Notes: generated by a model from the letters alone, not told the origin. A stretch of DNA of 64,000 nt from Escherichia coli (GCF_013122565.1 NZ_CP053258.1), one strand, 5' to 3'; shown: positions 37,794-59,346, counted from the stretch's first letter. A program made the numbers and translations.

Positions 37794-37843
37794 CTTCTTT
37801 CCTTATTTAACCCTCTTCCCTGCGGGAAGAGGGCATCTGTCAT

Positions 37844-39172
37844 TTATGCCAGCGCATCCATCCGACGCCACATACTGGCAGCGGCTTTTCTGGCTTGTGC
37901 ATAAATGGAATCGCAATCGAAGTTAAACTGACGGTCTTCATAGACCATCACACCATTGACCATCACGCTGTGAACGCTGCCTGAGCCCATACCGAAAGCG
38001 ATATGCCCGGCGATATTGTCTGCCAGCAGCGGCGTCGGCGAGTTGTAATCGCAAATGGTTAAATCAGCTTTGTAACCGGCTTCCAGAAGCCCAAATTTCG
38101 CGCCAAAGTTGCGACTCATCAGTTCGTTACCGTTAGTCAGGGCTTTGGCAAAACTGTCAGGCCACAGCGGACCACCCGCATCGCGATGTTTAAAGAAGGC
38201 AAATTTCATCTCTTCAAACATGTCCGAACCAATGCCGTCCGTTCCCAACGCCAGATTGCGGATGTCGCTAAGGTGATGGTTGTAGCCGACATGGTTGTTC
38301 ATGTTTGAACGGGCGTTATGCACCAGGAACGCATCGCGCTGATTGAGTAGGGCGATGTCATCTTTCGACAAGTACAGCCCATGAGCGACCAGCGTTTTGC
38401 TGTCGATGAGATCGAATTGCGCCAGTCGTGCCAGCAGGTCTTTGCCGTACCTGTGGTGACTGTAGGAAACGTCGTAAAGGTCTTCCGCAGCGTGAATATG
38501 CAAACCACGGCCTGTGGCTTTCACGGCTTCACGCAGCATCTCCAGACCGGCATCTGGCACGGTAAACGGTGCGTGAGCGCCGATATGTGCTTCCACCAGA
38601 TACGGCTCGGTTGCTGCTTTCTTCGCCTCATCAATCTGACGGGCGAAGCGGATGTTTTCTTCTACACCTTCCTGCAACTCTTTGATGCCGTTGTTACGGT
38701 CAGTAGTTTCAAAACAGGTCATCGCGCGCAGGCCAACTTTTAAAAATGCGTCGCGCAATGTGGAGAGCGACCCGCCGATATACGCCGGAGAGGCATGGTG
38801 ATCGATAACCGATGTACATCCGCTCTTAATCGCTTCCAGGGAGCAAATCAGCCCGCTGTAATAGAGCGACTCTTCATCAAGGGCGCGATCGAGCCGCCAC
38901 CAGAGATTTTTCAGCGTTGAGATGAAATCCGGGCAGGGGGCGATGTTTGCCATAATTCCGCGGGAAAGCCCCGAGTAAAAATGGTTGTGCGAGCAGACAA
39001 TTCCCGGCATCACAATCCGACCATGCATCTCTTTGTAGCTGGCATCGGGGTAGCGTTGCGTCAGGGCATCTCCGATAGCGACAATCACATCATTTTCGAT
39101 AGCGATATCAACGCCTTCCTGCACTTTCGCCGGGTGTAACTGCACTGCGGTGACATTCTTCAGAATCAACAT
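37844..39172 (-). CDS. ssnA: amidohydrolase-superfamily protein (chlorohydrolase / deaminase-like)
   Basis: 442 aa with metal-binding HxH near the N-terminus (SHNHFYSG). Confidence 0.85.
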   Translation of the reverse strand: MLILKNVTAVQLHPAKVQEGVDIAIENDVIVAIGDALTQRYPDASYKEMHGRIVMPGIVCSHNHFYSGLSRGIMANIAPCPDFISTLKNLWWRLDRALDEESLYYSGLICSLEAIKSGCTSVIDHHASPAYIGGSLSTLRDAFLKVGLRAMTCFETTDRNNGIKELQEGVEENIRFARQIDEAKKAATEPYLVEAHIGAHAPFTVPDAGLEMLREAVKATGRGLHIHAAEDLYDVSYSHHRYGKDLLARLAQFDLIDSKTLVAHGLYLSKDDIALLNQRDAFLVHNARSNMNNHVGYNHHLSDIRNLALGTDGIGSDMFEEMKFAFFKHRDAGGPLWPDSFAKALTNGNELMSRNFGAKFGLLEAGYKADLTICDYNSPTPLLADNIAGHIAFGMGSGSVHSVMVNGVMVYEDRQFNFDCDSIYAQARKAAASMWRRMDALA

Positions 39173-39174
39173 GA

Positions 39175-42100
39175 TTACACCTCCACGCGGCCCAGCAGAT
39201 AATGATGATGCTGGTGGACATGGCTAATAATGCGGCACATATCGTTCAGCTCATGTGGTACGTTGTTGAACTGACCTTCGCTGTCGATGTTTAACACCCA
39301 GCTTTGGTTATTCAGACGCACTCGTACCCGGCAATCTTCCACAAGGAAGCCTGGGTTGCTGCTGTTATCAAAGTCTTGCGCCAGGCTGAAGACGGTGATT
39401 TTGTCTTTGTATGGTTTACCGTTCCACGGACAGAACTGAGCGCAGTTGCCGCATTCGTTACAGTAAGCGTCGAGGTGCAGCGTCTGGAATCTATTCTGGA
39501 AGCCTGGGACCGCAATGGAGACGTTGGCGCGGTTCGGGCAGACATCCACACACTTGCTGCAAACGTAGTTACATTCGAGGCAGCGAGCGGCTTCCTGGGC
39601 GACAAACGCGTCACGATCGTCACTGTTCACCAGCGTGATAGAGATATCGCCTTTACGTTGATAGATTTCCGCCGGATTGACGTTGTTCCAGTATTTATCG
39701 TTCTGGTGGGAACGGATATTTTCCCGACTAAGGATGGCATCGGTCGCCCGACGCGCGGTTCCGACAGCAGCGACAATGGAGGATGGTCCGCGCTGTACGT
39801 CGCCGATCATAAAGACGTCAGTCAGACGAGTTTCGCCATTATGGTCGACGTCTGGCCAGCCGTTTTTGTCCAGCGGCACGCCCATCGCATTCAGGGCTTC
39901 AGTATCCTGCTGTTCACCAATGGCGGTGATCAGGCTGTCTACATGCAGTGTTACTGTTTCGTTGGTTTCAACCGGACGACGACGACCTTTCTCATCCGGT
40001 TCGCCAAGCGACATAACGCGCAAGGTTAAGGTGCCATCAGCATCGAAACGTTCCGGATTGTTCAGGAAACGGAACTCCACGCCGTCGTGCAACGCTTCTT
40101 CATACTCTTCGCGCCATGCGGGCATCTCTTGCAGTGAACGACGGTAAACGATCGTTGCTTTTTCTACGCCTGGAACGCGTAACGCCGCACGAGCGCAGTC
40201 CATTGCGGTGTTACCCGCCCCGACAACGACCACATGTTTGCCCAGCTTGAGCGCTGTACCCTTGTTGTATTCACGCAGGAAGGGGAGTGATTTCCAGACA
40301 TTTTGGTTGTCGCCCGCCAGTTTCACACCGCTATTTTTATCAGTGCCGGTGGCAATCAGAACATAGTGGAAGCCCTGATTTTTTAACTGTTCAACGGTCA
40401 AATCGGGTGAGCAGCCATACTCAAATTTCACGCCGTGAGCGGCAACAAAATCGATATCGTGCTGAATTAACTCTGCAGGAATACGGAACTGAGGGATGAT
40501 ATTTTTCACCACGCCGCCCGCATTGGCTTCGCGTTCAAACAGCGTAACCGGATGGCCCGCTCTGGCAAGGAAGTAACCTGCAGCCAGACCCGCCGGACCT
40601 GCACCAATCACGGCAACCGGATGGCGTGAACCAGAACCGGCTGGTTTGTGCCAACGTTGCTTATATTCATCCCAACCTTTTTCCAGCGCGACTTTTTTCA
40701 GTTCGCGGATATTCAGTGCACTGTCGTAATCCAGGCGGGTACAGTTGTATTGGCACTGGTGATCGCAAATATGACCGGTAATGGCGGGCAGGGCGTTGCG
40801 TTGGTAGATAAGTTCCAGCGCGTCGGCATAGCGGTGTTCGCCAAGCAGACGGATGTATTCCGGAATATCTTGCTTGATAGCGCAGGCAGTAACACAGGGG
40901 GCAACGTAGCAGTCGGTCAGCGGCAGGTCTTCTGCCACTTCAATACGCTCTTCTGGCTTCCAGTGTTTCTGGGTGTATTCCATGGTTAGCGCGTCTGCTG
41001 CCAGTCTGTTCAGTCGTTCGACGTCAACATGGTCAAGTCCCCAGGCGTCGGAGCCTTCCAGCTCGCGCATGCAGGCACTTAAGCGCAGATAGCCACCAGG
41101 TTTCAGCAGATCGGTTGCCATAGTAATAGGGCGAATACCAGTATCAAAAATATCGCGGATAGTCAGCTGACTGGCACCACCGGAATAAGAAATGGGCAGT
41201 TTGCCGTCAAAGGCGCGAGAGAGAACTGCTGCAACATTGATGGAGAGCGGGAACAGCGCACGGCCTGACATATACATCTCTTCACCGGGCAGTGCGCCTT
41301 TATTGTTGATGGTGCCGAGAGTGTTAGTCAGTTTTACGCCAAAGCCGAGTGATTTTTCTTTTGCCAGTGCCATCAGGCGTTCCAGCATTTCCAGCGCTTG
41401 CGTCAGCTTGAGGTCGTGATCAAATGACTCTTCTTTTAAGCCTATGTAACCGAAACCGCAGACATCGAGGATCTCACGAACACGCGCGTACCCCAGTAAG
41501 GTCGGGTTAAGTTTCACAAAGGTGTTGAGCCCTTTTTCTTCCAGCATGTAGCGGCAAATGGCTTCGATTTCATGCGGAGGACAGCCGTGCATGGTGGAGA
41601 GGGTGACGCCATGCACCATACTGGTGGGGATGCGAGCGGGTAAGGCTTGCAAGCTTTCGCGTTTTTCCTGCAATCCGTGGCGAGCTAAAAATGCGTCATC
41701 CTGGAGTAATTTATTCAGCGTATCGCGATATTGAGCGAATTTCGGATGGTCAGATGCGTCCATCATATTGTCGATGAACTGTTGCATCGGCGGTTGCTTA
41801 ATACCTTCGAGGTTGTAACCGACGCTCATATTAAAGATGAACGATTTACCGGAATCAGAAGGCTGGAACATCGCTTCGAGAAGGTGCAGGGCAAACCAGG
41901 CTTTGAGGTATTCATCCCAGGCTTTAAGCAGGGTAAATTCGGTAGACCATTCGGTGTTAAAACACTCGTCTTCGGCATCGATACAGGGCTTTTCCAGCTC
42001 CAGGCGGTCAAGAATTTGGACGGTTTTTAGTTCGATGAAGCGTCCGCCAGTCAGCCAGGAAGTGACAATATTTTGCGCGAGCTGCGTGTGCGGGCCAGCG

Positions 42101-42273
42101 GCAGGGCCGACGGGAGTGGCACAGGTTTCACCGAAGACGCTAACAGTTTTACCTTTTACGGGTGAGTAAAACTGTTGCTCGGGAATACCAAAGATTGAGC
42201 GTTGTTGTTGGTATTCATCAAATATGCGCGTCAAAAGTTCCTCAAACGGAATGGGACGCATAATATCCCCCAT
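39175..42273 (-). CDS. ygfK: large Fe-S flavoprotein oxidoreductase (GltD-like domain plus ferredoxin-like C-terminus)
   Basis: 1032 aa; dinucleotide-binding [21 protein letters not shown] and VVVVGAGNTAMDC; C-terminal Cys clusters. Confidence 0.9.
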   Translation of the reverse strand: MGDIMRPIPFEELLTRIFDEYQQQRSIFGIPEQQFYSPVKGKTVSVFGETCATPVGPAAGPHTQLAQNIVTSWLTGGRFIELKTVQILDRLELEKPCIDAEDECFNTEWSTEFTLLKAWDEYLKAWFALHLLEAMFQPSDSGKSFIFNMSVGYNLEGIKQPPMQQFIDNMMDASDHPKFAQYRDTLNKLLQDDAFLARHGLQEKRESLQALPARIPTSMVHGVTLSTMHGCPPHEIEAICRYMLEEKGLNTFVKLNPTLLGYARVREILDVCGFGYIGLKEESFDHDLKLTQALEMLERLMALAKEKSLGFGVKLTNTLGTINNKGALPGEEMYMSGRALFPLSINVAAVLSRAFDGKLPISYSGGASQLTIRDIFDTGIRPITMATDLLKPGGYLRLSACMRELEGSDAWGLDHVDVERLNRLAADALTMEYTQKHWKPEERIEVAEDLPLTDCYVAPCVTACAIKQDIPEYIRLLGEHRYADALELIYQRNALPAITGHICDHQCQYNCTRLDYDSALNIRELKKVALEKGWDEYKQRWHKPAGSGSRHPVAVIGAGPAGLAAGYFLARAGHPVTLFEREANAGGVVKNIIPQFRIPAELIQHDIDFVAAHGVKFEYGCSPDLTVEQLKNQGFHYVLIATGTDKNSGVKLAGDNQNVWKSLPFLREYNKGTALKLGKHVVVVGAGNTAMDCARAALRVPGVEKATIVYRRSLQEMPAWREEYEEALHDGVEFRFLNNPERFDADGTLTLRVMSLGEPDEKGRRRPVETNETVTLHVDSLITAIGEQQDTEALNAMGVPLDKNGWPDVDHNGETRLTDVFMIGDVQRGPSSIVAAVGTARRATDAILSRENIRSHQNDKYWNNVNPAEIYQRKGDISITLVNSDDRDAFVAQEAARCLECNYVCSKCVDVCPNRANVSIAVPGFQNRFQTLHLDAYCNECGNCAQFCPWNGKPYKDKITVFSLAQDFDNSSNPGFLVEDCRVRVRLNNQSWVLNIDSEGQFNNVPHELNDMCRIISHVHQHHHYLLGRVEV

Positions 42274-42594
42274 AACCCTCTCCTTAGCTTATACAGATAT
42301 CATTGAGTGACCGGTGTTGAGAAATCCGGTGGTTTAGGGGGATAGAGCAACAATCGCACCACTCTTGCCAGGTTTGGCGGGAAATATAAAAAAATGTGAG
42401 GCGGCTCGAAACTTAAGGGCTTTTTGTGAATGAACTCACAGGTGCCAAATGAGAATTAAAATCACTCCTGAAAATTATTATTGCCAGCCCATTTATCACT
42501 TTTTCTCTTTTCTCAAAATTAGTGATTCCTTATCATTATGATAAAGAGTGCTGGAGGGGTTAAATATTTGAACGCAATCGTTTAACTACGTTTT

Positions 42595-43173
42595 CTAAAT
42601 TTCAGTATACCTTTTCTTCGCTGTAATAAAGTCGTCCGGAGTATCAATATCTAAAATTATTTCTGCATTTTCTATTTCGACGGAATAATGATCTCCCATA
42701 AGGAATGCCTGACGCATATTGGTGACATTGGGTCGCTGGAATGCCTGCATCAAGCATGGTTTTGACACTAAAATCGGATGGCCGGGGATGCCATTATGAA
42801 GTGGCAGTATTGCGCCATCATTTCGTAACGACCAGATTTTTCTAAAAATATCAATGGTGAGGGTTGGCATGTCACCGTGGGTGAGAAAACAATGTTCTGT
42901 TTGCACTGCGGGTACTGCGGCCTTGACTGATGTTAGTAAACCCTGGGCATAATCTGGGTTGTGAATAATAGTGATATTACTCTGGTTCGCATAACGTTCG
43001 TGCAGTTCATTACCACGATAGCCGGTGACTAAAATAATTCGGCTACAAAACTGCAACGCATTTTTGATACTTGTATCAAGAATTGTTCCCTGTTGCCAGG
43101 GTAACATCATTTTCCATTGCCCCATTCTTGATGATAATCCGGCAGCGGTAATTATACAGTCGATGGCTGACAT
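42595..43173 (-). CDS. mocA: molybdenum cofactor cytidylyltransferase (MobA-like)
   Basis: 192 aa MSAIDCIITAAGLSSRMGQWKMMLPW, nucleotidyltransferase motif. Confidence 0.85.
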   Translation of the reverse strand: MSAIDCIITAAGLSSRMGQWKMMLPWQQGTILDTSIKNALQFCSRIILVTGYRGNELHERYANQSNITIIHNPDYAQGLLTSVKAAVPAVQTEHCFLTHGDMPTLTIDIFRKIWSLRNDGAILPLHNGIPGHPILVSKPCLMQAFQRPNVTNMRQAFLMGDHYSVEIENAEIILDIDTPDDFITAKKRYTEI

Positions 43174-43275
43174 AGTGGTTCCATTATTTATAGGGGCTAA
43201 TAACGCCTGATAATTGCGTTACTTCCTGATGGATTAAGTTGGGGGTAATTTATCCCAGAGAGGTCATAAAGACTC

Positions 43276-44046
43276 GTGAAAAGTATAGTTGACCCATCGG
43301 CATTATTCATTGATTTAGGTGCACAGAAACGTCCCACTGTGATTTCTGTTGTTGGTGCTGGGGGGAAAACCAGCTTGCTTTTTTGGCTGGCAGAACGGCT
43401 CCAGACTAGCGGCAGGCGTGTGTTAATCACGACGACGACACATATGTTTATGCCAACGTCACACTGGCCCGTGGTTTTCTGTCGTGATCCCGCCATGCTT
43501 CCTCATGCGTCTCTTACATCCCCCATTTCATTTTGTTTTCACAGCTGGAAAGCGAACCAGGGAAAAGTGCAGGGATTTACGCCAGAAGCGATTGATGCAC
43601 TGGTGCAACGACCAGAGTGTGACGTAATTCTCATTGAAGCAGATGGCTCGCGTGGAATGCCGTTAAAAGCCCCTGATGAGCACGAACCTTGCATACCCAA
43701 AAGCAGTTGCTGCGTGATTGCTGTGATGGGAGGACATATTTTGGGCGCGAAAGTGAGCACAGAAAATGTCCATCGCTGGTCGCAGTTTGCTGATATTACC
43801 GGGTTAACACCTGATGCAACCTTGCAACTGAGCGATCTCGTTGCGCTGGTTCGCCACCCTCAGGGGGCGTTTAAAAACGTACCGCAAGGTTGTCGGCGAG
43901 TCTGGTTCATTAACCGTTTTTCTCAATGTGAGAATGCGATTGCGCAAAGCGAGCTCCTTCAACCGCTGCAACAACACGACGTAGAGGCAATCTGGCTGGG
44001 CGATATACAAGAACATCCTGCAATCGCGCGCAGATTTGTGAATTAG
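43276..44046 (+). CDS. yqeC: YqeC-family accessory protein of selenium-dependent molybdenum hydroxylases (P-loop)
   Basis: 256 aa with Walker A-like VVGAGGKTS; paired with yqeB. Confidence 0.85.
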   Translation: MKSIVDPSALFIDLGAQKRPTVISVVGAGGKTSLLFWLAERLQTSGRRVLITTTTHMFMPTSHWPVVFCRDPAMLPHASLTSPISFCFHSWKANQGKVQGFTPEAIDALVQRPECDVILIEADGSRGMPLKAPDEHEPCIPKSSCCVIAVMGGHILGAKVSTENVHRWSQFADITGLTPDATLQLSDLVALVRHPQGAFKNVPQGCRRVWFINRFSQCENAIAQSELLQPLQQHDVEAIWLGDIQEHPAIARRFVN

Positions 44047-44093
44047 CGGCCCGGGTATTCCGGGTTACTGAAAGGATATCCATTGAGGTTGGT

Positions 44094-45719
44094 ATGAATA
44101 TTTTCACAGAGGCTGCAAAACTCGAAGAGCAAAATTGTCCGTTTGCGATGGCGCAAATTGTTGATAGCCGAGGCTCGACTCCCCGCCATTCTGCACAAAT
44201 GTTAGTGCGCGCCGATGGCTCTATCGTCGGTACAATTGGTGGCGGAATGGTTGAGCGGAAGGTGATTGAAGAGTCGCTTCAGGCATTGCAGGAGCGTAAG
44301 CCGCGATTATTCCATGGACGTATGGCTCGTAACGGTGCGGATGCTGTCGGGTCAGATTGTGGAGGTGCAATGTCAGTATTTATCAGCGTCCATGGTATGC
44401 GTCCACGTCTGGTGTTGATTGGCGCGGGGCATGTCAACCGGGCGATAGCCCAGAGTGCGGCGCTATTAGGATTTGATATTGCCGTTGCCGATATTTATCG
44501 CGAAAGCCTCAATCCTGAACTATTCCCTCCATCAACCACGCTTCTCCATGCTGAGTCGTTTGGTGCGGCAGTGGAAGCACTGGATATTCGCCCTGATAAT
44601 TTTGTCCTGATTGCCACGAATAATCAGGATCGTGAAGCCCTCGACAAACTCATTGAACAGCCCATTGCATGGTTGGGGTTGCTGGCAAGTCGTCGCAAGG
44701 TTCAGCTTTTCCTGCGTCAATTGCGTGAGAAAGGCGTGGCTGAAGAACATATTGCCCGTTTACATGCGCCCGTTGGTTACAACATAGGTGCGGAAACGCC
44801 GCAGGAGATCGCCATCAGCGTGCTGGCAGAAATATTACAGGTGAAAAATAACGCGCCGGGTGGGCTGATGATGAAACCTTCTCATCCTTCCGGACACCAG
44901 CTGGTGGTGATTCGCGGTGCGGGAGATATCGCCAGTGGTGTGGCGCTACGTCTGTATCATGCGGGTTTTAAAGTGATCATGCTGGAAGTGGAAAAACCGA
45001 CAGTGATTCGTTGTACCGTGGCGTTTGCCCAGGCCGTGTTCGATGGCGAAACGACGGTCGAAGGCGTCACTGCCCGCCTGGCAACCAGCTCTGCGGAAGC
45101 GATGAAACTTACCGAACGCGGATTCATCCCTGTGATGGTAGATCCCGCCTGTTCATTGCTTGATGAACTGAAACCGCTTTGCGTGGTGGACGCTATTCTG
45201 GCGAAACAGAATTTGGGAACGCGGGCAGATATGGCACCAGTAACAATCGCGCTTGGGCCGGGCTTTACTGCAGGGAAGGATTGTCATGCGGTAATTGAAA
45301 CAAATCGCGGGCACTGGCTCGGTCAGGTGATTTACTCTGGTTGTGCGCAGGAGAATACCGGTGTTCCTGGCAATATTATGGGGCATACCACCCGACGGGT
45401 GATCCGTGCTCCTGCTGCAGGCATTATGCGATCCAACGTGAAATTAGGCGATCTGGTGAAAGAGGGCGATGTGATTGCCTGGATTGGTGAGCATGAAATT
45501 AAAGCACCGTTGACGGGAATGGTGCGTGGCTTGTTGAACGACGGCCTGGCAGTGGTTGGTGGTTTTAAAATTGGTGATATTGATCCTCGTGGTGAAACCG
45601 CTGATTTCACCAGCGTTTCTGATAAAGCCCGGGCGATTGGCGGCGGCGTACTTGAGGCGTTAATGATGTTGATGCATCAGGGCGTTAAAGCGACGAAAGA
45701 AGTGCTGGAAGTGGCTTAA
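44094..45719 (+). CDS. yqeB: YqeB-family accessory protein of selenium-dependent molybdenum hydroxylases (XdhC/CoxI-like)
   Basis: 541 aa; XdhC-like Rossmann region. Confidence 0.85.
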   Translation: MNIFTEAAKLEEQNCPFAMAQIVDSRGSTPRHSAQMLVRADGSIVGTIGGGMVERKVIEESLQALQERKPRLFHGRMARNGADAVGSDCGGAMSVFISVHGMRPRLVLIGAGHVNRAIAQSAALLGFDIAVADIYRESLNPELFPPSTTLLHAESFGAAVEALDIRPDNFVLIATNNQDREALDKLIEQPIAWLGLLASRRKVQLFLRQLREKGVAEEHIARLHAPVGYNIGAETPQEIAISVLAEILQVKNNAPGGLMMKPSHPSGHQLVVIRGAGDIASGVALRLYHAGFKVIMLEVEKPTVIRCTVAFAQAVFDGETTVEGVTARLATSSAEAMKLTERGFIPVMVDPACSLLDELKPLCVVDAILAKQNLGTRADMAPVTIALGPGFTAGKDCHAVIETNRGHWLGQVIYSGCAQENTGVPGNIMGHTTRRVIRAPAAGIMRSNVKLGDLVKEGDVIAWIGEHEIKAPLTGMVRGLLNDGLAVVGGFKIGDIDPRGETADFTSVSDKARAIGGGVLEALMMLMHQGVKATKEVLEVA

Positions 45720-45770
45720 ATGAAAATGGCCGGATGGTATTACCCACCCGGCCTGAGACTGATGACAAAC

Positions 45771-45877
45771 GCCGAATTGCCTGATGGACTACGCTTATCA
45801 GGCCTACAAGTGCATTGCAATCTATTGAATTTACGATGTTTTGTAGGCCGGATAAGGCGCTCGCGCCGCATCCGGCA
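45771..45877. repeat. REP / BIME cluster
   Basis: two inverted REP palindromes (gcctgatggactacgcttatcaggcctac and gtaggccggataaggcgctcgcgccgcatccggca) between convergent yqeB and yqeA. Confidence 0.6.
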
Positions 45878-45938
45878 TCAACAAAGCGCGTTTTGTTAAC
45901 AATCTTTAACCGGATGGCGTATCCATCCGGCCTTTAAA

Positions 45939-46871
45939 TTACTGACAAATCACCGTTCCGGTTTTGCCTTCAATCCCTTCTTTCGCTTTGCTCAACACGG
46001 TAATCAGTGCTTCACGACCTGCGCGAGAGCGAGCAAACGAGGCGGCAGCTTCCACTTTAGGCAGCATAGAACCTTTCGCAAAATGACCTTCTTCGATAAA
46101 GCGTTCAGCATCACTTAATGACAGGCGATCGAGCCACTGTTCATTCTCTTTACCGAAGTTAATGGCCACTTTTTCTACCGCAGTCAGAATGATCAGCATA
46201 TCGGCATCAATCATTTCTGCTAAACGGGCGCTGGCCCAGTCTTTATCGATAACCGCACTGGCACCACGCAGGTGGTTACCTTCACGAATAACAGGGATAC
46301 CACCACCGCCAACGGTAATCACTACCTGGCCTGCTTCTACCAGCGCTTTTACCGTCTCTTTTTCAATAATATCAACCGGTTTTGGTGAAGCAACAACACG
46401 ACGATAGCCGCGACCAGCATCTTCTTTCAGGGTGTAGCCCTGTTTTGTCAGTTGCTCTGCTTCTTGCTCGGTAAAGAACGAACCGATCGGCTTGGTCGGG
46501 TTGAGGAATGCCGGGTCGTTAGCGTCGACTTCGACCTGAGTAACCAGCGTTGCTACAGGTTTATTAATGCCCCGAGAAAGCAGTTCTTCTCTTAAAGCGT
46601 TTTGTAGATCGTAACCAATATAACCCTGGCTTAATGCAACACAGACAGACATCGGCAGCATTGGCGAGTGTGCTTCAGTTTTTGCGGCAGCTTCAAAGGC
46701 CTGGTTAATCATGCCCACCTGTGGCCCGTTACCGTGAGTGACGATGACCTCATGTCCCTGGGCAATTAAATCAACAATTGCCTGAGAAGTAATTTTTACC
46801 GCTTTCATTTGCCCGGCCAGGTCATCGCCCAGCGCATTCCCGCCCAGGGCGAGAACAATTTTCTTACTCAT
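45939..46871 (-). CDS. yqeA: carbamate kinase-like protein
   Basis: 310 aa amino-acid-kinase family, MSKKIVLALGGNALG. Confidence 0.9.
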   Translation of the reverse strand: MSKKIVLALGGNALGDDLAGQMKAVKITSQAIVDLIAQGHEVIVTHGNGPQVGMINQAFEAAAKTEAHSPMLPMSVCVALSQGYIGYDLQNALREELLSRGINKPVATLVTQVEVDANDPAFLNPTKPIGSFFTEQEAEQLTKQGYTLKEDAGRGYRRVVASPKPVDIIEKETVKALVEAGQVVITVGGGGIPVIREGNHLRGASAVIDKDWASARLAEMIDADMLIILTAVEKVAINFGKENEQWLDRLSLSDAERFIEEGHFAKGSMLPKVEAAASFARSRAGREALITVLSKAKEGIEGKTGTVICQ

Positions 46872-46918
46872 TTTTCCTCACTCATCATTCTTGATTGTGT
46901 ATAGATCCCTGGCAGTGG

Positions 46919-48304
46919 TTAGAGCACGGGAGGGACAAACGGTTTGCGTCGCAGGAAACGACCTCGCCCGGCTTTGCCTGTAAAGGTGCCGTCACAGAAA
47001 ATCGTTTCACCACGGGATAAGGTTCTGACAATCGCGCCCTGACAGGTAAAACCCTCCCATGGCGAGTAGTCGGCGTTGTCGTGGAGATGGCGATGCTGAA
47101 TTTGTTGGCTCTGACGTGGGTCGATAATCACCACGTCGCCATCGGAACCGGGCGCTAATAATCCTTTTTGCGGCCACAGGCCAAACAGCCTGGCGGGCAT
47201 TGCGCTGGTTAATTCAACAAAGCGTTCCGGTGTTATACGTCCCGTCATCACGCCACTGGAAAACAGTAACTGCATGCGGTTTTCCACACCGGGTAAGCCA
47301 TTTGGGCAGCGACTGAAATCGCCTTTAGAAATTTGCAGGCGTTGAGCCATTGAGAACGTGCAGTGATCGGTCGCCACCACGTCAATCGCACCATCGCTGA
47401 TGCCACACCACAGTTTGTCCTGCTCGCGTACGTTACGCAGCGGTGGGCTAAGAATGAACTTCATGCCATCTTCTGTATCGTAACTGCGTTCGTCCAACAG
47501 GAGATATTGTGGGCAGGTTTCAACCCAGACTGGCTGGTGATTCGCACGGGCAAGACGCAGATAATCCAGACCTAAGCCGTTAGACAGGTGCACGATATAG
47601 AGCGGGGCGTTACCGGCAATTTGTGCCAGGTTAATCATGCGGGCGATGGCTTCCGCTTCGCATTCCAGAGGGCGACTCAAGGCGTGATAGCGCGGCGCGG
47701 TTAACCCTGCGGCGATAAACTCCGCCCGCTTGCTGGCGATAGCCGCATCATTTTCCGGGTGCACGGTGGTCAGCGCGCCGGATTCATGCAGACGGCGTAA
47801 TGCCTGCAAAACCTCGTCATCGTTGAGTTTGTATTGATAGGTTAAATAGAGTTTAAAACTGCTCAGTCCTTCCTCGACCATCATCGGGATTTCGTCGAGG
47901 ATGGCGTGATTAATGTGCTGGATCACACCGTGAAAGCTGTAATCGATGACCGCTTTATGGGCGGCATAACCACGATAAACCTCCAGTTGATGGCGTAACC
48001 GACAGCCGTTTGGGCCAAATCCCATATGGTCAATAATGGTTGTTGTACCGCCACACGCAGCTGCGCGGGTACCGGTAAAAAAATCATCACAACTGCGCGC
48101 GATGCCGACATCAATATTGAAATGCGTATGGACATCCACGCCGCCAGGGAAAACGTAACAGCCAGTGGCATCAATTTCTTCATACGGGAGCTGCGGCGAA
48201 ATATTGTTGCCCAACTGGCGAACAATCCCGCTTTCAATCAGCAAATCCTGTTTGGCTTGTCCATCTGCGTTAACGACAGTGCCGTTTTTGATCAATACGC
48301 GCAT
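46919..48304 (-). CDS. hyuA: D-phenylhydantoinase / dihydropyrimidinase-family cyclic amidohydrolase
   Basis: 461 aa from MRVLIKNGTVVNADGQ with HxH metal site (DVHTHF). Confidence 0.9.
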   Translation of the reverse strand: MRVLIKNGTVVNADGQAKQDLLIESGIVRQLGNNISPQLPYEEIDATGCYVFPGGVDVHTHFNIDVGIARSCDDFFTGTRAAACGGTTTIIDHMGFGPNGCRLRHQLEVYRGYAAHKAVIDYSFHGVIQHINHAILDEIPMMVEEGLSSFKLYLTYQYKLNDDEVLQALRRLHESGALTTVHPENDAAIASKRAEFIAAGLTAPRYHALSRPLECEAEAIARMINLAQIAGNAPLYIVHLSNGLGLDYLRLARANHQPVWVETCPQYLLLDERSYDTEDGMKFILSPPLRNVREQDKLWCGISDGAIDVVATDHCTFSMAQRLQISKGDFSRCPNGLPGVENRMQLLFSSGVMTGRITPERFVELTSAMPARLFGLWPQKGLLAPGSDGDVVIIDPRQSQQIQHRHLHDNADYSPWEGFTCQGAIVRTLSRGETIFCDGTFTGKAGRGRFLRRKPFVPPVL

Positions 48305-48356
48305 AGCAAACTCCAAAAACCCTCCGGCGAACCGGAGGGGAATAAGTGAAGAGTAA

Positions 48357-49568
48357 TTATTCGGTTGCCAGCCAGCTTAACGGGATTGCAGCGTACATCG
48401 CGGCACAGGTCACCAGGTGAGATTTCCAGGTTTTTTCGTTAGGTGCATGCGCTTCAGGTTCTTTACCCGGGCCAAAGCCGATCACCGGAATGCCGTGACG
48501 GCCCATGATAGATACGCCGTTAGTTGAGAAGGTCCACTTATCAACAACCGGCGCTTTGCCAAACAGCCCTTCGTAGGCATTCACCAGTGCTTTAACGGTG
48601 AAGTGATCTTCTTCCACTTTCCAGGTCGGGAAGTAGCATTCGGTTGGGTAAACCAGGCCAGTCCAGGACGGACGGTCGTAGTTGTACATAGAAACAACCG
48701 CGTTAGCTTTCTGTACTGCAGGCAGGGCGCGGATTTCGTCCAGCGCGCCTTCCCAGGTTTCGCCCCAGGTCAGACGGCGGTCAATAGAGACGGCGCAGCT
48801 ATCTGCTACAGCGCAACGGCTTGGGGATGTGAAGAAGATTTCAGAAACGGTGAGGGTGCCTTTGCCGAGGAATTCGTCATAACCCAGACGTTGGGAGAGT
48901 TCTTGTAATTCGCCAAGAATCGGACCCATTTTGAAAATGGCGTTGTCACCGCGTTCTGGCGCAGAACCGTGGCAGCTAACACCCTGAACATCAATACGAA
49001 TTTCCATACGACCGCGCTGACCACGGTATACCTGGCAGTCGGTTGGTTCGGTACTGACCACAAATTCCGGGCGAATGCCGGATTGTTCAATAATGTACTG
49101 CCAGCACAGACCGTCGCAGTCTTCTTCCTGCACAGTACCGGTAACCAGCAGGGTATATTCATCTTCCAGACCGAGGTCTTTAATGATTTTACCGGCATAA
49201 ACCATAGATGCCATGCCGCCTTCCTGGTCGGAAGTACCGCGACCACCGATCAGCTCATCAGTTTCCATGCCTTCGTACGGATCGAAGTCCCAGTTTTTGA
49301 TGTTGCCAATGCCGACGGTATCGATATGAGCGTCCATTGCCACCAGACGCGGGCCGTGGCCGATATAACCGAGAACGTTACCCATCGGGTCGATTTCAAC
49401 TTTATCGAAGCCGACTTTTTCCATCTCTTCTTTAATACGATGTACTACGCGTTTCTCGTCGCAGCTTTCACTGGGAATAGCAACCATGTCGCGCAGGAAG
49501 CGAGTCATATCCGCCTGGTAATCTTTTGCTTTTTCAAGAATCAGTTTGAATGGAATATTCTTAGCCAT
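48357..49568 (-). CDS. ygeY: M20-family peptidase / amidohydrolase
   Basis: 403 aa from [18 protein letters not shown]; ORF-track extension trimmed. Confidence 0.9.
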
Positions 49569-49624
49569 TATTTTTCTCCAGATTTTTACTCCCCGTTTTG
49601 CAGGGAGCAGTTCCAATAGGGTGA

Positions 49625-50821
49625 TTAAGGTGCTACAGCGTGTTTGCCTTCCCAGACAACTTCGCGGTAGTGCTTCACGTCGGTGTCGCCTTCAGTGCTG
49701 ATAACCAGCACTACGGCATCTTTGTTCAGCGCCAGTTTTTGCATCAGGCTTTGACGTTGCGGGTGATAATGAACCGCCGCGAGAACGCCCAAACCGACAG
49801 CGCCGGATTCACCGGAGATGATGCGCGGGTCGTTGCCGTACGGATTACCCAGCACGCGCATACCTAATGCGGCAACGCTGTCCTGGCAGGAGATGAATTG
49901 GGTGGCGCAGTTACGTAGGATTTCCCAGCCCAGCGGGTTAGGTTCGCCACAGGCCAGGCCCGCCATGATGGTGGCCATATCACCGCCAACGTTGACGATG
50001 TCGCCTTTGACGCCGGAGCGATAAATACAGTCAGCTTTGTCAGGTTCAACAATAATGCTGTGCAGATTTTGCGGGCTGTAGACGTCGACCAGATAACCCA
50101 GCACACCACCGGCCATTGCACCGACACCGGCTTGCAGCAGAACGTGTGTCGGGGTTACGCCCATTTCACGCATTTGCTCGACGGCTTCATCTGCCAGTGT
50201 TGCGTAGCCTTGCATGATCCAGGTTGGGATTTTAGTGTAACCTTCCCATGCCGTGTCCTGTACCACTTCCCAGCCGTGCTGCTGCGCGTGTTGCATGGTC
50301 AGGCGAACGGTATCGTCATAGTTCATATCCGTGACGATGCACTCGGCACCGAGGTTCAGAATGGCGTCAACGCGTTCCTGAGCAGAACCTTTCGGCATGT
50401 AAATCACCGCATTCTGTCCGAGTTGCTGTGCTGCCCACGCCACACCGCGCCCGTGGTTGCCGTCGGTGGTGGTCGCGAAAGTCATTTTTTCGCCGATGGC
50501 ATTTTTCAGGTGCTCAAATGACAGCGTTTCGATATCAAGATGATATTTTTCACACAATAATTGAGCGATGGCGTACGCACCGCCGAGCATTTTGAAGGCG
50601 TTCAGACCGAATCGTTTTGATTCGTCTTTGACGAGAATTTTCTTCACACCAAAAAGGTTTGCGAGATCGTCCAGCGCACAAAGCGGTGTTGGGCGATAAC
50701 CAGCTATTTTCTGGTGGAACTGGCGCGCCAGTTTGGCCTGGCTTTGCGAAAAGAGCGGTGATGTTTCGCCGTTGAAAAATTTGTTATCGGCGATATCAAT
50801 CTTCAATGAGAAAACGGACAT
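49625..50821 (-). CDS. ygeX: 2,3-diaminopropionate ammonia-lyase (PLP-dependent)
   Basis: 398 aa, tryptophan-synthase-beta-like PLP fold; the alternative name for this gene is dpaL. Confidence 0.9.
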
Positions 50822-50878
50822 ATCCTATCCTTTTGGCCTCTGGAAATAGAGGGCCGACCAGCTGATCGGCCCGAGGGG

Positions 50879-52069
50879 TTATTTCACGCGTTCTTGCGCT
50901 TCTTTCAGCAGTTGCTCGAGCAGTGCACCTGGTTTGGCGTATTTACGGGACAGGATCATCGCGGCGATGATATAAGGCTTCCAGCTGGCTTCTTTGTAGG
51001 TAGCGATACGGTATTTTTCGAATACGCCTTCAGTCACTTCACCTTCTTTGCAGGATACGCCGCTGATATCAGCTGGCAGGCAGTGCATGTACAGGGCTTC
51101 GCCATCACGGGTCAGTTCCATCATCTCTTCAGTACAATGCCAGTCTTTGTGTTGCGCGTTCTGTGCCAGACACTGTTTTTCCAGTGCTTTTAAGCCTTCG
51201 TGGTCGTTTGCACGCAGCAATTCAGTACGCTCTTCCATCACTTTGTAAGGTGCCCATGACTTCGGATAAACGATGTCTGCGTCTTTGAAGGCTTCTTCCA
51301 TGCTGGTGACCTGACGGAAGCTACCACCGGAGGCTTTAGCATTGTTTTTCGCCACTTCAACCACATCCGGGATCAGGTCGTAGCCTTCCGGATGGGCCAG
51401 GGTGACATCCATACCGAAGCGAGTCATCAGACCGATGATGCCTTGTGGTACAGAGAGCGGTTTGCCATAGCTTGGGGAGTAGGCCCAGGTCATGGCGATT
51501 TTTTTACCTTTCAGGTTTTCCAGTGAACCAAAGTGTTCACGTAACCATGCCAGGTCAGCCATTGACTGAGTCGGGTGGTCAATATCACATTGCAGGTTCA
51601 CTAAAGCCGGACGTTGCGGCAGAACACCCTGCTTGTAACCGTCATCAAGTGCAGCGCCAACTTCACGCATATAGGCGTTGCCTGCGCCCAGATACATATC
51701 GTCGCGAATACCAATAGCGTCGGCGCAGAAGGAGATCATATTGGCGGTTTCACGCACGGTTTCGCCGTGAGCGATTTGTGATTTGCCTTCGTCGAGATCT
51801 TGCTGTGCAAGGCCGAGCAGGTTAAGCGCGGAAGCATAAGAGAAGCGGGTACGAGTGGAGTTGTCGCGGAATACGGAAATACCTAATCCACTGTTAAAGA
51901 CTTTGGTTGAGATGTTTTCAGCACGCAGTGCTTTTAATGCTGCGGCAACGTCCAGTACTTGTTTCAGTTCATCTGGCGTCTGTTCCCACGTTAACAAAAA
52001 ATCTTTCTCGTGAAGGTGAGAGGTCAGCGAATTGATATCCTTAATCAGCTCATTAACAGTTTTCATCAT
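50879..52069 (-). CDS. ygeW: carbamoyltransferase-family protein (OTC/ATC fold, substrate unresolved)
   Basis: 396 aa with STRTR carbamoyl-phosphate-binding motif and HCLP motif. Confidence 0.9.
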   Translation of the reverse strand: MMKTVNELIKDINSLTSHLHEKDFLLTWEQTPDELKQVLDVAAALKALRAENISTKVFNSGLGISVFRDNSTRTRFSYASALNLLGLAQQDLDEGKSQIAHGETVRETANMISFCADAIGIRDDMYLGAGNAYMREVGAALDDGYKQGVLPQRPALVNLQCDIDHPTQSMADLAWLREHFGSLENLKGKKIAMTWAYSPSYGKPLSVPQGIIGLMTRFGMDVTLAHPEGYDLIPDVVEVAKNNAKASGGSFRQVTSMEEAFKDADIVYPKSWAPYKVMEERTELLRANDHEGLKALEKQCLAQNAQHKDWHCTEEMMELTRDGEALYMHCLPADISGVSCKEGEVTEGVFEKYRIATYKEASWKPYIIAAMILSRKYAKPGALLEQLLKEAQERVK

Positions 52070-52544
52070 AAAGTCCCGGTAGTGGAATGACAGGCAAAGT
52101 GGTTTATTTCACTGTGACTTGCCAAAGTGATTGGTGTTTTCACAGCTATACTTGGGACTAACAATAAGTGTGCCAGAATTATCCACGGGGCTGCAAAAGA
52201 CTAATTTGACGGATAATGTGTGGGGTTGATCACAAATTGATGCCAGCTTCCGGTTGTTTGTAAAATACGAAAACGTTTGGCTTTTTTTATCGCGTTATTT
52301 ATTTGCTGCTAAGTATCAGAAATAAGATAAAGGGGCAGGCTATCCCTCGTCAGTTTGATAAACTCACCGCCGTAATTCTCATATTGATATAGAAATGTGA
52401 TATCTCTTCCATAATTTCATTAGAAAGTGATAAAAATCTTATGTTTTTATCAAAGCCAATTTCGCCTGAGTTAATATCATCATGATCTGTGAACCATCAA
52501 CGTCTTCAATGATCGACTTTTAAGTAAGTCTGGAAGGTAAAGCT

Positions 52545-54323
52545 ATGGAGCTTGCTACTACGCAGTCAGTATTGATGCAAATTCAACCGACAATTCAGCG
52601 TTTTGCCAGAATGCTTGCCAGCGTTTTGCAGCTTGAGGTTGAGATCGTTGATGAAAACTTGTGTCGCGTCGCCGGAACTGGCGCGTATGGGAAGTTTCTT
52701 GGTCGCCAGTTGAGCGGCAACTCACGCCTGCTCCGCCACGTCCTGGAAACGAAAACTGAAAAAGTTGTGACACAGTCTCGCTTCGATCCCCTTTGTGAAG
52801 GTTGCGATAGTAAAGAAAATTGCCGCGAAAAAGCATTTCTGGGTACGCCTGTCATTTTACAGGATCGTTGTGTTGGGGTGATAAGTTTGATTGCCGTTAC
52901 CCACGAGCAACAAGAGCATATTAGTGATAATTTACGCGAATTTTCTGATTACGTTCGCCATATATCCACCATTTTTGTTTCGAAACTTCTGGAGGATCAG
53001 GGACCAGGAGATAACATCAGTAAAATATTCGCGACCATGATCGATAATATGGATCAGGGCGTATTAGTTATTGATGACGATAATCGGATTCAGTTTGTTA
53101 ATCAGACAGCCTTAAAAACACTCGGTGTTGTGCAAAATAATATTATTGGGAAACCTATCCGTTTCAGACCATTAACATTTGAGAGTAATTTTACCCATGG
53201 ACATATGCAGCATATTGTTTCGTGGGACGATAAAAGTGAGTTAATCATTGGTCAATTGCATAACATTCAGGGCCGACAATTATTTTTAATGGCGTTTCAC
53301 CAATCGCATACCAGTTTTTCTGTAGCAAATGCACCTGATGAACCGCATATTGAACAATTGGTTGGCGAGTGCCGTGTTATGCGGCAATTAAAACGACTCA
53401 TTAGCCGTATTGCACCCAGCCCATCCAGCGTTATGGTGGTTGGTGAAAGCGGCACGGGTAAAGAAGTCGTCGCCCGTGCAATCCATAAGTTGAGCGGAAG
53501 ACGGAATAAACCCTTTATTGCTATCAACTGTGCCGCGATTCCGGAGCAGCTTCTGGAGAGCGAACTGTTCGGTTATGTTAAAGGCGCATTTACTGGCGCT
53601 TCTGCCAACGGTAAAACAGGGTTGATTCAGGCGGCGAATACGGGCACGCTGTTTCTCGATGAAATAGGTGATATGCCATTAATGTTGCAGGCTAAATTAC
53701 TGCGCGCTATTGAGGCACGTGAAATTCTGCCGATTGGTGCCAGTAGCCCAATACAAGTCGACATTCGCATCATTTCTGCAACTAACCAGAATTTGGCCCA
53801 GTTCATTGCAGAAGGTAAATTCCGCGAAGATCTCTTCTACCGACTTAATGTTATCCCGATAACTCTGCCACCGCTGCGTGAACGTCAGGAAGATATTGAA
53901 CTACTGGTGCATTATTTTTTACATCTGCATACCCGTCGTCTGGGATCGGTTTATCCGGGCATTGCTCCCGATGTCGTCGAAATATTGCGTAAGCATCGTT
54001 GGCCCGGAAACCTGCGCGAGTTAAGCAATTTGATGGAATATCTGGTTAACGTGGTTCCTTCAGGTGAAGTTATCGACAGCACGCTATTGCCGCCAAATCT
54101 GCTGAATAATGGCACAACGGAGCAAAGTGATGTAACAGAGGTCAACGAGGCGCACCTGGCACTCGATGATGCGGGCGGCACGGCGCTGGAGGAGATGGAA
54201 AAGCAAATGATCCGCGAGGCGCTTTCACGTCATAACAGCAAGAAGCAAGTTGCTGATGAACTGGGCATCGGCATTGCTACGCTCTATCGCAAGATTAAGA
54301 AATATGAGTTGTTAAACACATAA
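52545..54323 (+). CDS. ygeV: sigma54-dependent transcriptional activator (bacterial enhancer-binding protein)
   Basis: 592 aa; AAA+ core with Walker A GESGTGKE and the sigma54-contact GAFTGA motif; C-terminal HTH; N-terminal sensory region. Confidence 0.9.
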   Translation: MELATTQSVLMQIQPTIQRFARMLASVLQLEVEIVDENLCRVAGTGAYGKFLGRQLSGNSRLLRHVLETKTEKVVTQSRFDPLCEGCDSKENCREKAFLGTPVILQDRCVGVISLIAVTHEQQEHISDNLREFSDYVRHISTIFVSKLLEDQGPGDNISKIFATMIDNMDQGVLVIDDDNRIQFVNQTALKTLGVVQNNIIGKPIRFRPLTFESNFTHGHMQHIVSWDDKSELIIGQLHNIQGRQLFLMAFHQSHTSFSVANAPDEPHIEQLVGECRVMRQLKRLISRIAPSPSSVMVVGESGTGKEVVARAIHKLSGRRNKPFIAINCAAIPEQLLESELFGYVKGAFTGASANGKTGLIQAANTGTLFLDEIGDMPLMLQAKLLRAIEAREILPIGASSPIQVDIRIISATNQNLAQFIAEGKFREDLFYRLNVIPITLPPLRERQEDIELLVHYFLHLHTRRLGSVYPGIAPDVVEILRKHRWPGNLRELSNLMEYLVNVVPSGEVIDSTLLPPNLLNNGTTEQSDVTEVNEAHLALDDAGGTALEEMEKQMIREALSRHNSKKQVADELGIGIATLYRKIKKYELLNT

Positions 54324-58080: not shown

Positions 58081-58097
58081 GGCAAGATTTACGCCAG
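58081..58097 (-). promoter_or_regulatory. candidate sigma54 -24/-12 promoter upstream of xdhABC
   Basis: minus-strand sequence cTGGCgtaaatcTTGCc with GG-N10-GC spacing, about 95 nt upstream of the xdhA ATG; sigma54 activator gene ygeV is adjacent. Confidence 0.35.
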
Positions 58098-58441
58098 AAA
58101 CGACGATAAGCGTTAAGGGAGGAAGGAAGTGTGATGATGTTAAAAAAAACACAGATATGATACGAAACAGGACCCTGAATAGGGGCAGTGATACGTATCA
58201 ATATGAGTGGCGATAAAATCAATGTGATAAATTGGGATTATTACGCATCAGGATGGGAAATAGGGTAAATGAGTCAGGAAATTCGATACCTCTACAGTGA
58301 ATATTTTGCTGATGATACTTCCCTTTGCCAAATGAAATTAATCTCTTTCTCTATTACTGCGTTTTTCCAGAAGCAAGAGATTGGGTATCAAGAGGCTGGC
58401 TGCTATGATATGGCGTCTTGTTTTTTAAGCGAGGAAAGATT

Positions 58442-59272: not shown

Positions 59273-59346
59273 GCGGGCGTAGTTCAATGGTAGAACGAGA
59301 GCTTCCCAAGCTCTATACGAGGGTTCGATTCCCTTCGCCCGCTCCA
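59273..59346 (+). tRNA. glyU: tRNA-Gly (anticodon CCC)
   Basis: 74 nt cloverleaf GCGGGCGUAGUUCAAUGGUAGAACGAGAGCUUCCCAAGCUCUAUACGAGGGUUCGAUUCCCUUCGCCCGCUCCA; encoded CCA. Confidence 0.95.

Follow-up and report, generated by a model that had tools for sequence, protein, structure and literature searches.

The ygeW-ygeX-ygeY-hyuA-yqeA block of an Escherichia coli genome as the probable lower module of anaerobic urate degradation

The DNA considered here is a 64,000-nucleotide stretch of an Escherichia coli genome (GCF_013122565.1 NZ_CP053258.1), referred to below as the window. Between positions 45939 and 52069 it carries, on the minus strand and in order of transcription, the genes ygeW, ygeX (dpaL), ygeY, hyuA and yqeA (arcC). 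An earlier reading of the sequence (the original prediction) described this interval as an operon of five co-directional, tightly spaced genes whose products belong to five named enzyme families, one of them an orphan carbamoyltransferase of unknown specificity. It proposed that ring opening, decarbamoylation and formation of carbamoyl phosphate lead to ATP in a distinct branch of N-heterocycle fermentation, which resembles the logic of the arginine deiminase and allantoin-oxamate routes. The gene arrangement is as described. Open reading frame (ORF) calling places five co-directional ORFs that fill the interval exactly, with no further ORF of comparable size, and the gaps between them, in transcription order, are 57, 56, 52 and 47 bp, so that the genes lie close together without overlap. 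The mechanical ORFs of ygeY (48357-49616) and hyuA (46919-48316) open at upstream TTG codons; alignment with the genes of E. coli K-12 gives the true ATG starts at 49568 for ygeY (403 amino acids) and at 48304 for hyuA (461 amino acids).

Family membership was judged by bit score against the curated NCBIfam equivalog cut-offs, and all five products exceed the cut-off of the family that had been named for them. The first gene, ygeW (50879-52069), encodes a knotted carbamoyltransferase that scores 825 bits against NF005538 (cut-off 453) and 675 bits against TIGR03316 (cut-off 500). The product of ygeX/dpaL (49625-50821) is a pyridoxal phosphate-dependent 2,3-diaminopropionate ammonia-lyase (TIGR03528, 650 bits, cut-off 532), and that of ygeY (48357-49568) is an M20 metallohydrolase (TIGR03526, 721 bits, cut-off 321). 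These are followed by hyuA (46919-48304), encoding a D-stereospecific hydantoinase (TIGR02033, D-hydantoinase/dihydropyrimidinase, 675 bits, cut-off 393), and by yqeA/arcC (45939-46871), encoding a carbamate kinase (TIGR00746, 386 bits, cut-off 358). The proteins are nearly invariant relative to K-12: YgeW and YgeY (403/403 residues) are 100% identical, HyuA is 99.8% identical (460/461), and YgeX (397/398) and YqeA (309/310) are each 99.7% identical. None of the genes has a frameshift or a truncation.

YgeW is also 100% identical to the solved structure PDB 3Q98, and carries the STRTR, HPTQ and HCLP motifs, the proline-rich loop and residues Q98, D124, Q160, S200, K203, K270, D334 and E344. 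It is not a plain ornithine or aspartate carbamoyltransferase. Its scores fall far short of the cut-offs for ornithine transcarbamylase (OTCase; 133 against 281 bits), N-acetylornithine transcarbamylase (AOTCase; 129 against 288), putrescine transcarbamylase (PTCase; 108 against 500) and aspartate transcarbamylase (ATCase; 75 against 263). At the nucleotide level, a 7.1-kb stretch is present at a coverage of at least 80% in 5161 of 5426 complete E. coli genomes. The best match among these genomes reaches only 99.0% over the 7.1 kb, and the source strain may come from a lineage to which few of the complete genomes belong. Identical YgeW proteins (100%) were also found in Escherichia sp. E1V33 and E. 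whittamii.

The block very probably forms the lower module of the pathway by which E. coli degrades uric acid anaerobically (the reductive or 2,8-dioxopurine pathway). The locus is the very cluster that has been published for K-12, so that there is no discovery here: the pathway was already known, and was solved experimentally between 2023 and 2025. The block constitutes only the lower half of a urate system of roughly 25 kb. The structure of YgeW was solved in 2011, without its substrate being found. In 2013, synteny of ygeW-yqeA with ssnA, the xdh genes and a urate permease was reported. RNA sequencing (RNA-seq) and genetics in 2022-23 then linked ygeX, ygeY, ygeW, ygfK, ssnA and hyuA to the production of acetate from urate under anaerobic conditions, both in Clostridium sporogenes and in E. 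coli, and E. coli mutants in ygeW, ygeX, ygeY and hyuA lost the formation of labelled acetate from urate. Finally, two studies in 2025 rebuilt the pathway with K-12 enzymes (Li et al., PMC12507026; Liu et al., bioRxiv 10.1101/2025.04.24.650524).

In the reconstituted pathway, the upper module, consisting of XdhD-YgfM, YgfK and SsnA, takes urate through 2,8-dioxopurine and a reduced ring to ureidomethyl-hydantoin. In E. coli, XdhD-YgfM reduces urate to 2,8-dioxopurine, and YgfK then dearomatises the ring. Ureidomethyl-hydantoin is cleaved by HyuA to (R)-2,3-diureidopropionate, from which YgeW removes one ureido group with phosphate, releasing it as carbamoyl phosphate, while YgeY hydrolyses the remaining ureido group and YgeX converts diaminopropionate to pyruvate and two NH3 (PMC12507026). 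Liu et al. reconstituted the route from urate to pyruvate stepwise, and found that ADP was converted to ATP on diureidopropionate only when YgeW and YqeA were combined, that the (R) enantiomer was the sole form used by YgeW, and that YqeA stimulates YgeW (bioRxiv 10.1101/2025.04.24.650524). Every enzyme step, as well as ATP formation, has thus been demonstrated by published experiment on the K-12 proteins. The proteins of the window are essentially identical to these assayed enzymes, and therefore the functions transfer without further inference. The present analysis adds, as direct observations, this identity, the synteny of the block, and the conservation of its promoter and stem-loops.

The sequence of reactions in the strain studied here would accordingly be expected to run as follows. 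Firstly, HyuA would hydrolyse the hydantoin ring to give (R)-2,3-diureidopropionate. Secondly, YgeW, a knotted transcarbamylase working in the catabolic direction, would phosphorolyse one ureido group, most probably the 3-ureido group, to yield carbamoyl phosphate and (R)-3-amino-2-ureidopropionate. Thirdly, YqeA would use the carbamoyl phosphate to phosphorylate ADP; this substrate-level phosphorylation would yield carbamate together with one ATP per urate, and would draw the unfavourable YgeW reaction forward. YgeY would then hydrolyse the (2-)ureido group that is left, with no conservation of energy, and diaminopropionate would be deaminated by YgeX to pyruvate and two molecules of ammonia. 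The ring-opening, decarbamoylation and ATP-forming logic put forward in the original prediction therefore stands, and the N-heterocycle fermentation branch is the urate pathway; the description of the carbamoyltransferase as an orphan is out of date, since YgeW acts on 2,3-diureidopropionate. A real pathway had in this way been reconstructed from sequence alone. Through this pathway, urate from the host is removed by E. coli and by many anaerobes of the gut, which gain ATP and pyruvate from it; the pathway thereby influences serum urate and the risk of gout. An E. coli Nissle strain engineered to overexpress the cluster lowers urate in mice (Li et al.).

The co-occurrence of the five genes extends well beyond E. 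coli. A profile built from seven YgeW sequences was scanned against one genome per species, followed by tblastn with the cluster proteins. The best 80 of at least 569 confirmed YgeW relatives (loci L003-L082) were analysed; all of them are from Proteobacteria and share at least 82% identity. Counts of gene order cover the 73 loci with enough downstream sequence. A separate search for homologues of the YgeW protein gave a view of close relatives, all 120 listed matches having at least 85% identity. The order ygeW-ygeX-ygeY-hyuA-carbamate kinase, with all genes on the same strand, was found in 71/73 loci, spanning Enterobacterales, Aeromonas, Vibrionaceae and Shewanella. The five-gene arrangement is not due to chance. 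The other two eligible loci are betaproteobacterial and have no ygeX in the block; ygeX is missing between ygeW and ygeY in L060, L062 and L064, which are from Betaproteobacteria of the Rhodocyclaceae/Accumulibacter type. Conservation of the block in Firmicutes and Actinobacteria is known from the literature.

YgeW is the most conserved member of the block, at 83-100% identity across the loci. In 71 of the 73 loci the fifth gene encodes a carbamate kinase, and in the Vibrionaceae and Shewanella (L065-L082, comprising Photobacterium, Vibrio, Aliivibrio and Shewanella) this kinase is only 37-41% identical to YqeA, compared with 62-85% for the other four proteins. In these loci a different kinase lineage appears to have replaced YqeA at the same position, which would mean that it is the kinase function, and not a particular gene, that is retained beside the pathway. 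Among gut strains, a carbamate kinase was present in the cluster in 33 of 39 (bioRxiv 10.1101/2025.04.24.650524).

The surroundings of the block match the K-12 map in reverse orientation. On one side lie xdhABC and the divergent gene ygeV, and on the other yqeB, yqeC, mocA, ygfK, ssnA, ygfM and xdhD. The upper half of the pathway, ygfK, ssnA, ygfM and xdhD, occupies 34147-42273 on the minus strand at 99.1-99.6% identity and full length by tblastn, and has a sigma-54 site of its own. Together with the selenium/molybdenum cofactor genes yqeB, yqeC and mocA, the genes xdhD/ygfM, ygfK and ssnA fall within 34150-45716, where all are full length and 98.4-99.8% identical; ygfK, ssnA, ygfM, xdhD, xdhABC and ygeV are all intact in the window. 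The product of ygeV (52545-54323, plus strand) is a sigma-54 enhancer-binding regulator, 99% identical to the E. coli YgeV that is annotated as a sigma-54 interaction-domain protein, and a divergent ygeV is found upstream of ygeW in most of the loci compared. At its other end the block closes with a convergent gap between yqeA and yqeB (45720-45938), which has a hairpin directly after the yqeA stop codon, palindromes of the repetitive extragenic palindromic (REP) type and strong hairpins on both strands; the Rfam matches in this gap, to naRNA4/ES036 (REP-derived), are sub-threshold only.

Further out, beyond actS, the window contains a single tRNA-Gly(CCC) gene, glyU (59273-59346, plus strand). 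The same tRNA is followed by strain-specific genes in the closest complete genome (DUF6538, a recombinase, AIPR); K-12 has other genes after it (ygeQ and remnants of the ETT2 region with IS2). The glyU site looks like an integration hotspot.

Transcription of the block would start from a sigma-54 promoter approximately 90 nt upstream of the ygeW start. The element, CTGGCACACTTATTGTT (52160-52176, minus strand), has one mismatch to TGGCAC-N5-TTGCW, the -12 part being TTGT and not TTGC. It is letter for letter the site OS30 identified in K-12 by chromatin immunoprecipitation sequencing (ChIP-seq) of sigma-54, which was assigned to ygeW. Two points weigh against this promoter: the ChIP-seq signal reported for OS30 is weak, and the -12 element is non-canonical. 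The element is kept upstream of ygeW in nearly all of the 80 loci, mostly at a distance of 86-130 nt and in a few Vibrionaceae at up to about 250 nt. Nearly all 80 loci lack the C of the usual -12 GC: most Enterobacterales have TTGT, Aeromonas, Serratia and the betaproteobacteria TTGA, and Vibrionaceae TTGG, while two Shewanella loci seem to keep the GC. The deviation in the -12 element is itself conserved. In a conservation footprint over 65 distinct ygeV-ygeW intergenic regions, the sigma-54 promoter is the best-conserved block.

Two further features lie upstream of this promoter. A CRP-like site, TGTGATCAACCCCACA (52219-52234, minus strand), matches TGTGA-N6-TCACA at 9 of 10 positions and is moderately conserved. 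Li et al. report a native Crp site between ygeV and ygeW, as well as repression of urate degradation by glucose, and catabolite control may be exerted through the CRP-like site. A candidate YgeV enhancer region spans 52375-52452 on the minus strand. It comprises an inverted repeat, TGATAAAAA-N7-TTTTTATCA (52428-52452), and a highly conserved block with a repeated ATATCA (52375-52406). The 9-bp inverted repeat was located by regular expression, being below the minimum length of 10 used in the repeat search. The motif TTTATCA/TGATAAA occurs four times in 475 bp, compared with 0.36 per kb window-wide. Related inverted repeats based on TGATA/TATCA are found upstream of ygfK (TTATCATAATGATAA, 42495-42545) and of xdhA (TGATACGTATCA, approximately 58195-58210). 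These palindromes, located upstream of three sigma-54 promoters of the cluster, are candidate binding sites for YgeV.

The sigma-54 sites of the other two genes are on the minus strand as well. That of ygfK (42346-42361; TGGTGCGATTGTTGCT/GTGGTGCGATTGTTGCT) is the K-12 ChIP-seq site OS31, unchanged, and that of xdhA (58081-58097; CTGGCGTAAATCTTGCC) is likewise an unchanged K-12 ChIP-seq site. Given that the ygeW, ygfK and xdhA ChIP-seq sites are all in the window, at least three sigma-54 promoters of one regulon are present here. The YgeV iModulon derived from RNA-seq groups ygeW, ygeX, ygeY and hyuA with xdhABC, ygfK, ssnA, ygfM, xdhD, ygfT and uacT. The promoter upstream of ygeW would presumably be activated by YgeV and modulated by CRP.

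Folding of the window predicts stem-loops in the gaps between the genes. After ygeW there is a stem-loop of the form GGGCCGAUC-AGCU-GGUCGGCCC (50851-50872, minus strand), with a fold energy of -25.5 kcal/mol and a z-score of -2.35, and after ygeX a weaker one, CUCCCUG-CAAAA-CGGGGAG (49587-49609, minus strand). The gap after ygeY holds a stem-loop, CCCUCCGG-UUCG-CCGGAGGG (48320-48339, minus strand), with a GC-rich 8-bp stem, followed by a UUUUU run and the Shine-Dalgarno sequence of hyuA; because of the UUUUU run, this hairpin looks like a terminator in the window. Across species, a perfect stem of at least 7 bp is present in 61/69 distinct ygeW-ygeX gaps (median z-score -2.4) and in 51/55 distinct ygeY-hyuA gaps (median -3.2). 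The corresponding figures are 33/63 for the ygeX-ygeY gap (median -1.0) and 11/35 for the hyuA-yqeA gap (median about 0).

After both ygeW and ygeY, the GC-rich structure is kept while its sequence varies by genus, and most of the stem-loops have no U-tail. For the ygeW-ygeX gap, covariation was scored for the stem of the window on an alignment of 39 gap sequences, separately from the measurement of stems and z-scores in each sequence. Compensatory changes were found at 7 of 9 pairs, in 36 cells, a number reached in none of 500 shuffles, and 80% of the cells were paired, compared with 20-50% when the partner columns were slid. RNAalifold returned no consensus structure from this 39-sequence alignment, in which loop lengths differ and outliers are misaligned, which would account for the null result. 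In the ygeY-hyuA alignment, different stem sequences occupy the same position, and the arms are out of register. T-rich tails after the ygeY-hyuA stems are rare (6/55 distinct gaps); termination is therefore not the conserved property, and the E. coli hairpin with its UUUUU run is an exception. A search of the intercistronic hairpins against Rfam gave no match, and their identification as REP elements was rejected because the sequences differ between genera and match nothing in Rfam.

How these structures bear on the transcript depends on whether the five genes form one operon, as had been proposed. The part of that claim which stands is co-regulation: hyuA belongs to the same YgeV iModulon as ygeWXY, so that separate transcription under unrelated inducers is not what is seen. 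A single five-gene transcript is plausible, and one operon for all five genes is likely. A somewhat unlikely arrangement is that of two or more co-regulated units, with ygeWXY in one and hyuA-yqeA in another, in which the hairpin between ygeY and hyuA would truly terminate transcription. Several observations speak for such a division and against a continuous transcript, namely the annotation of a ygeWXY operon in databases and the literature, the hairpin in the ygeY-hyuA gap of the window, with its GC-rich 8-bp stem, its UUCG loop and its UUUUU tail, and the absence of yqeA from the published gene list of the YgeV iModulon. Against the division, the intercistronic gaps and their vicinity gave no sigma-70-like promoter in a scan; this includes the 52-bp ygeY-hyuA gap and the sequence just upstream of it, and the sole promoter-like hit within ygeY (49186-49214) is some 880 nt away from the hyuA start, on the upstream side. 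Moreover, hyuA co-varies with ygeWXY, the hairpin is kept in nearly all of the distinct ygeY-hyuA gaps while its T-rich tail is rare, the five-gene order is held in almost every eligible locus, and a promoter inserted upstream of ygeW raised the flux through the pathway (Li et al.).

Most likely, one sigma-54 transcript would read through all five genes, and the stem-loops that follow ygeW and ygeY would determine the mRNA level of each segment. Whether stabilising or attenuating, the stem-loops suggest a segmented transcript. It is conceivable, although we put this forward tentatively, that the covarying stem-loops and the promoter lacking the -12 C form an undescribed layer of expression tuning, in which the segments ygeW, ygeX-ygeY and hyuA-yqeA differ in stability or read-through. 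If true, this layer would set the enzyme ratios around the thermodynamically unfavourable YgeW step. The conserved promoter, the candidate YgeV sites and the stem-loops are relevant to any re-engineering of cluster expression for uricolytic probiotics.

The point of the biochemistry that is worth specialist attention is the regiochemistry of YgeW, that is, which of the two ureido groups of 2,3-diureidopropionate it removes. Most probably it is the 3-ureido group and not the 2-ureido group. Liu et al. report that the 3-ureido group is lost and that the product is 3-amino-2-ureidopropionate (bioRxiv 10.1101/2025.04.24.650524). According to their supplement, [1,3-15N2]urate puts both labels into the 3-ureido group, and only the singly labelled (M+1) product built up in a ygeY mutant; custom-synthesised 3-amino-2-ureidopropionate matched this product. 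Li et al. give the opposite order within the same pathway: phosphorolysis of the 2-ureido (N-alpha) group by YgeW would leave D-albizziin, whose 3-ureido group would be hydrolysed afterwards by YgeY. We regard this order as unlikely.

That order has evidence of its own, which counts against removal of the 3-ureido group. Li et al. name albizziin (2-amino-3-ureidopropionate) as the product of YgeW. A product of their coupled HyuA and YgeW assays co-eluted with commercial albizziin, and E. coli YgeY (EcYgeY) with YgeX turned albizziin into pyruvate (PMC12507026); albizziin also builds up in their overexpressing strain. In addition, the 15N tracing was done in C. sporogenes and not in E. coli, and a commentary counts the order of ureido cleavage as unresolved. 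A literature search found no later paper that settles the order. On the other hand, the albizziin peak obtained from YgeW was small (PMC12507026), and the liquid chromatography method of Li et al. may not have separated the two isomers. In contrast, the tracing by Liu et al. gave the singly labelled product only, and YgeY consumed just one of the two synthetic mono-ureido isomers (Liu supplement). Of the evidence in the two studies, the 15N experiment is the more discriminating.

The relatives of the two enzymes also argue for removal of the 3-ureido group. The solved structures closest to YgeW, after its own (3Q98, 2YFK), are AOTCases, followed by OTCases and PTCases, and no ATCase was found among its solved relatives at E < 1e-10. 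Residues K270 and Q160 of YgeW, both present in the protein of the window, occupy the alpha-carboxylate-anchor positions of K252 and E144 in AOTCase. The solved relatives just named carbamoylate a side-chain amine, and in the knotted branch the substrate is also N-alpha-acylated. YgeY, in turn, has as its nearest solved relatives ArgE, DapE and LysK, which are N-alpha-deacylases, and CPG2. By homology, the AOTCase/ArgE pair, read in reverse, and YgeW/YgeY would treat an N-alpha-acyl, side-chain-ureido amino acid alike. YgeY perhaps accepts both mono-ureido isomers, since EcYgeY and YgeX convert albizziin to pyruvate (Li et al.), and if it does, the order of ureido removal may truly differ between organisms.

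The reading that fares worst takes YgeW for an ornithine or aspartate carbamoyltransferase of the ordinary kind, or for the oxamate transcarbamylase of anaerobic allantoin fermentation, and the block for one of arginine or allantoin catabolism. It was the historical expectation from the adjoining carbamate kinase and general family membership, and can be dismissed with near certainty. Published assays refute it: according to the literature, YgeW is inactive on oxamate- and allantoin-related compounds, and the oxamate transcarbamylase activity belongs to AllFGH, proteins whose sequences are not related to the ATCase/OTCase/YgeW family. In addition, the scores of YgeW for OTCase, AOTCase, PTCase and ATCase are far below the cut-offs, and no allantoin gene lies in the block and no arcA-like gene in or beside it. 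A stand-alone system for the utilisation of hydantoins or D-amino acids was considered for the block and likewise rejected.

Relative to the 2,8-dioxopurine or reductive urate cluster of K-12 (b2870-b2874; Liu et al. 2025, Li et al. 2025), the block has the same genes, order, neighbours and sigma-54 promoter sequence, and differs only by nucleotide divergence at the strain level (99.0% in the best E. coli match). What is added here to the published work is modest: the sigma-54 promoter without the -12 C, the candidate YgeV sites, the covarying stem-loops, the apparent replacement of the kinase in Vibrionaceae, and the homology argument on the regiochemistry of YgeW.

In the arginine deiminase pathway (ArcA, the catabolic OTCase ArcB and the carbamate kinase ArcC), a ureido compound is likewise turned into carbamoyl phosphate by a catabolic transcarbamylase, and ATP is made by a carbamate kinase, an analogy drawn by Liu et al. 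themselves (bioRxiv 10.1101/2025.04.24.650524). However, the substrate of YgeW is 2,3-diureidopropionate and not citrulline, and the enzyme is knotted and fails the OTCase cut-off. A deiminase is absent from the block, in which the transcarbamylase step is flanked by a hydantoinase, an M20 hydrolase and a pyridoxal phosphate-dependent lyase, and only the carbamate kinase step is common to both. In the Xanthomonas-type system of arginine synthesis, with AOTCase and acetylcitrulline deacetylase, the AOTCase is knotted and is the nearest structural relative of YgeW, and YgeY belongs to the ArgE family. By analogy, the transcarbamylase would handle the side-chain ureido group and the M20 enzyme the N-alpha-acyl group. 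That system is anabolic and acts on ornithine, whereas the present one is catabolic and acts on D-diaminopropionate, and YgeW has extra helices and a more hydrophilic pocket.

The anaerobic allantoin-oxamate route (AllFGH with the carbamate kinase AllK/YbcF) also takes a purine-derived ureido compound to carbamoyl phosphate and ATP. It differs in that AllFGH is unrelated in sequence, has three subunits, acts on oxalurate and is encoded at a different locus. Lastly, reductive pyrimidine degradation (PydA/PydB/PydC) and the industrial D-hydantoinase/D-carbamoylase process also rely on a cyclic amidohydrolase for the opening of a reduced ring, with decarbamoylation of the resulting N-carbamoyl compound as the next step; HyuA, a D-hydantoinase, matches the dihydropyrimidinase model as well. 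The Pyd and D-carbamoylase routes use a single carbamoyl-cleaving hydrolase, while in the urate pathway two enzymes share the decarbamoylation, one a phosphorolytic transcarbamylase and the other an M20 hydrolase.

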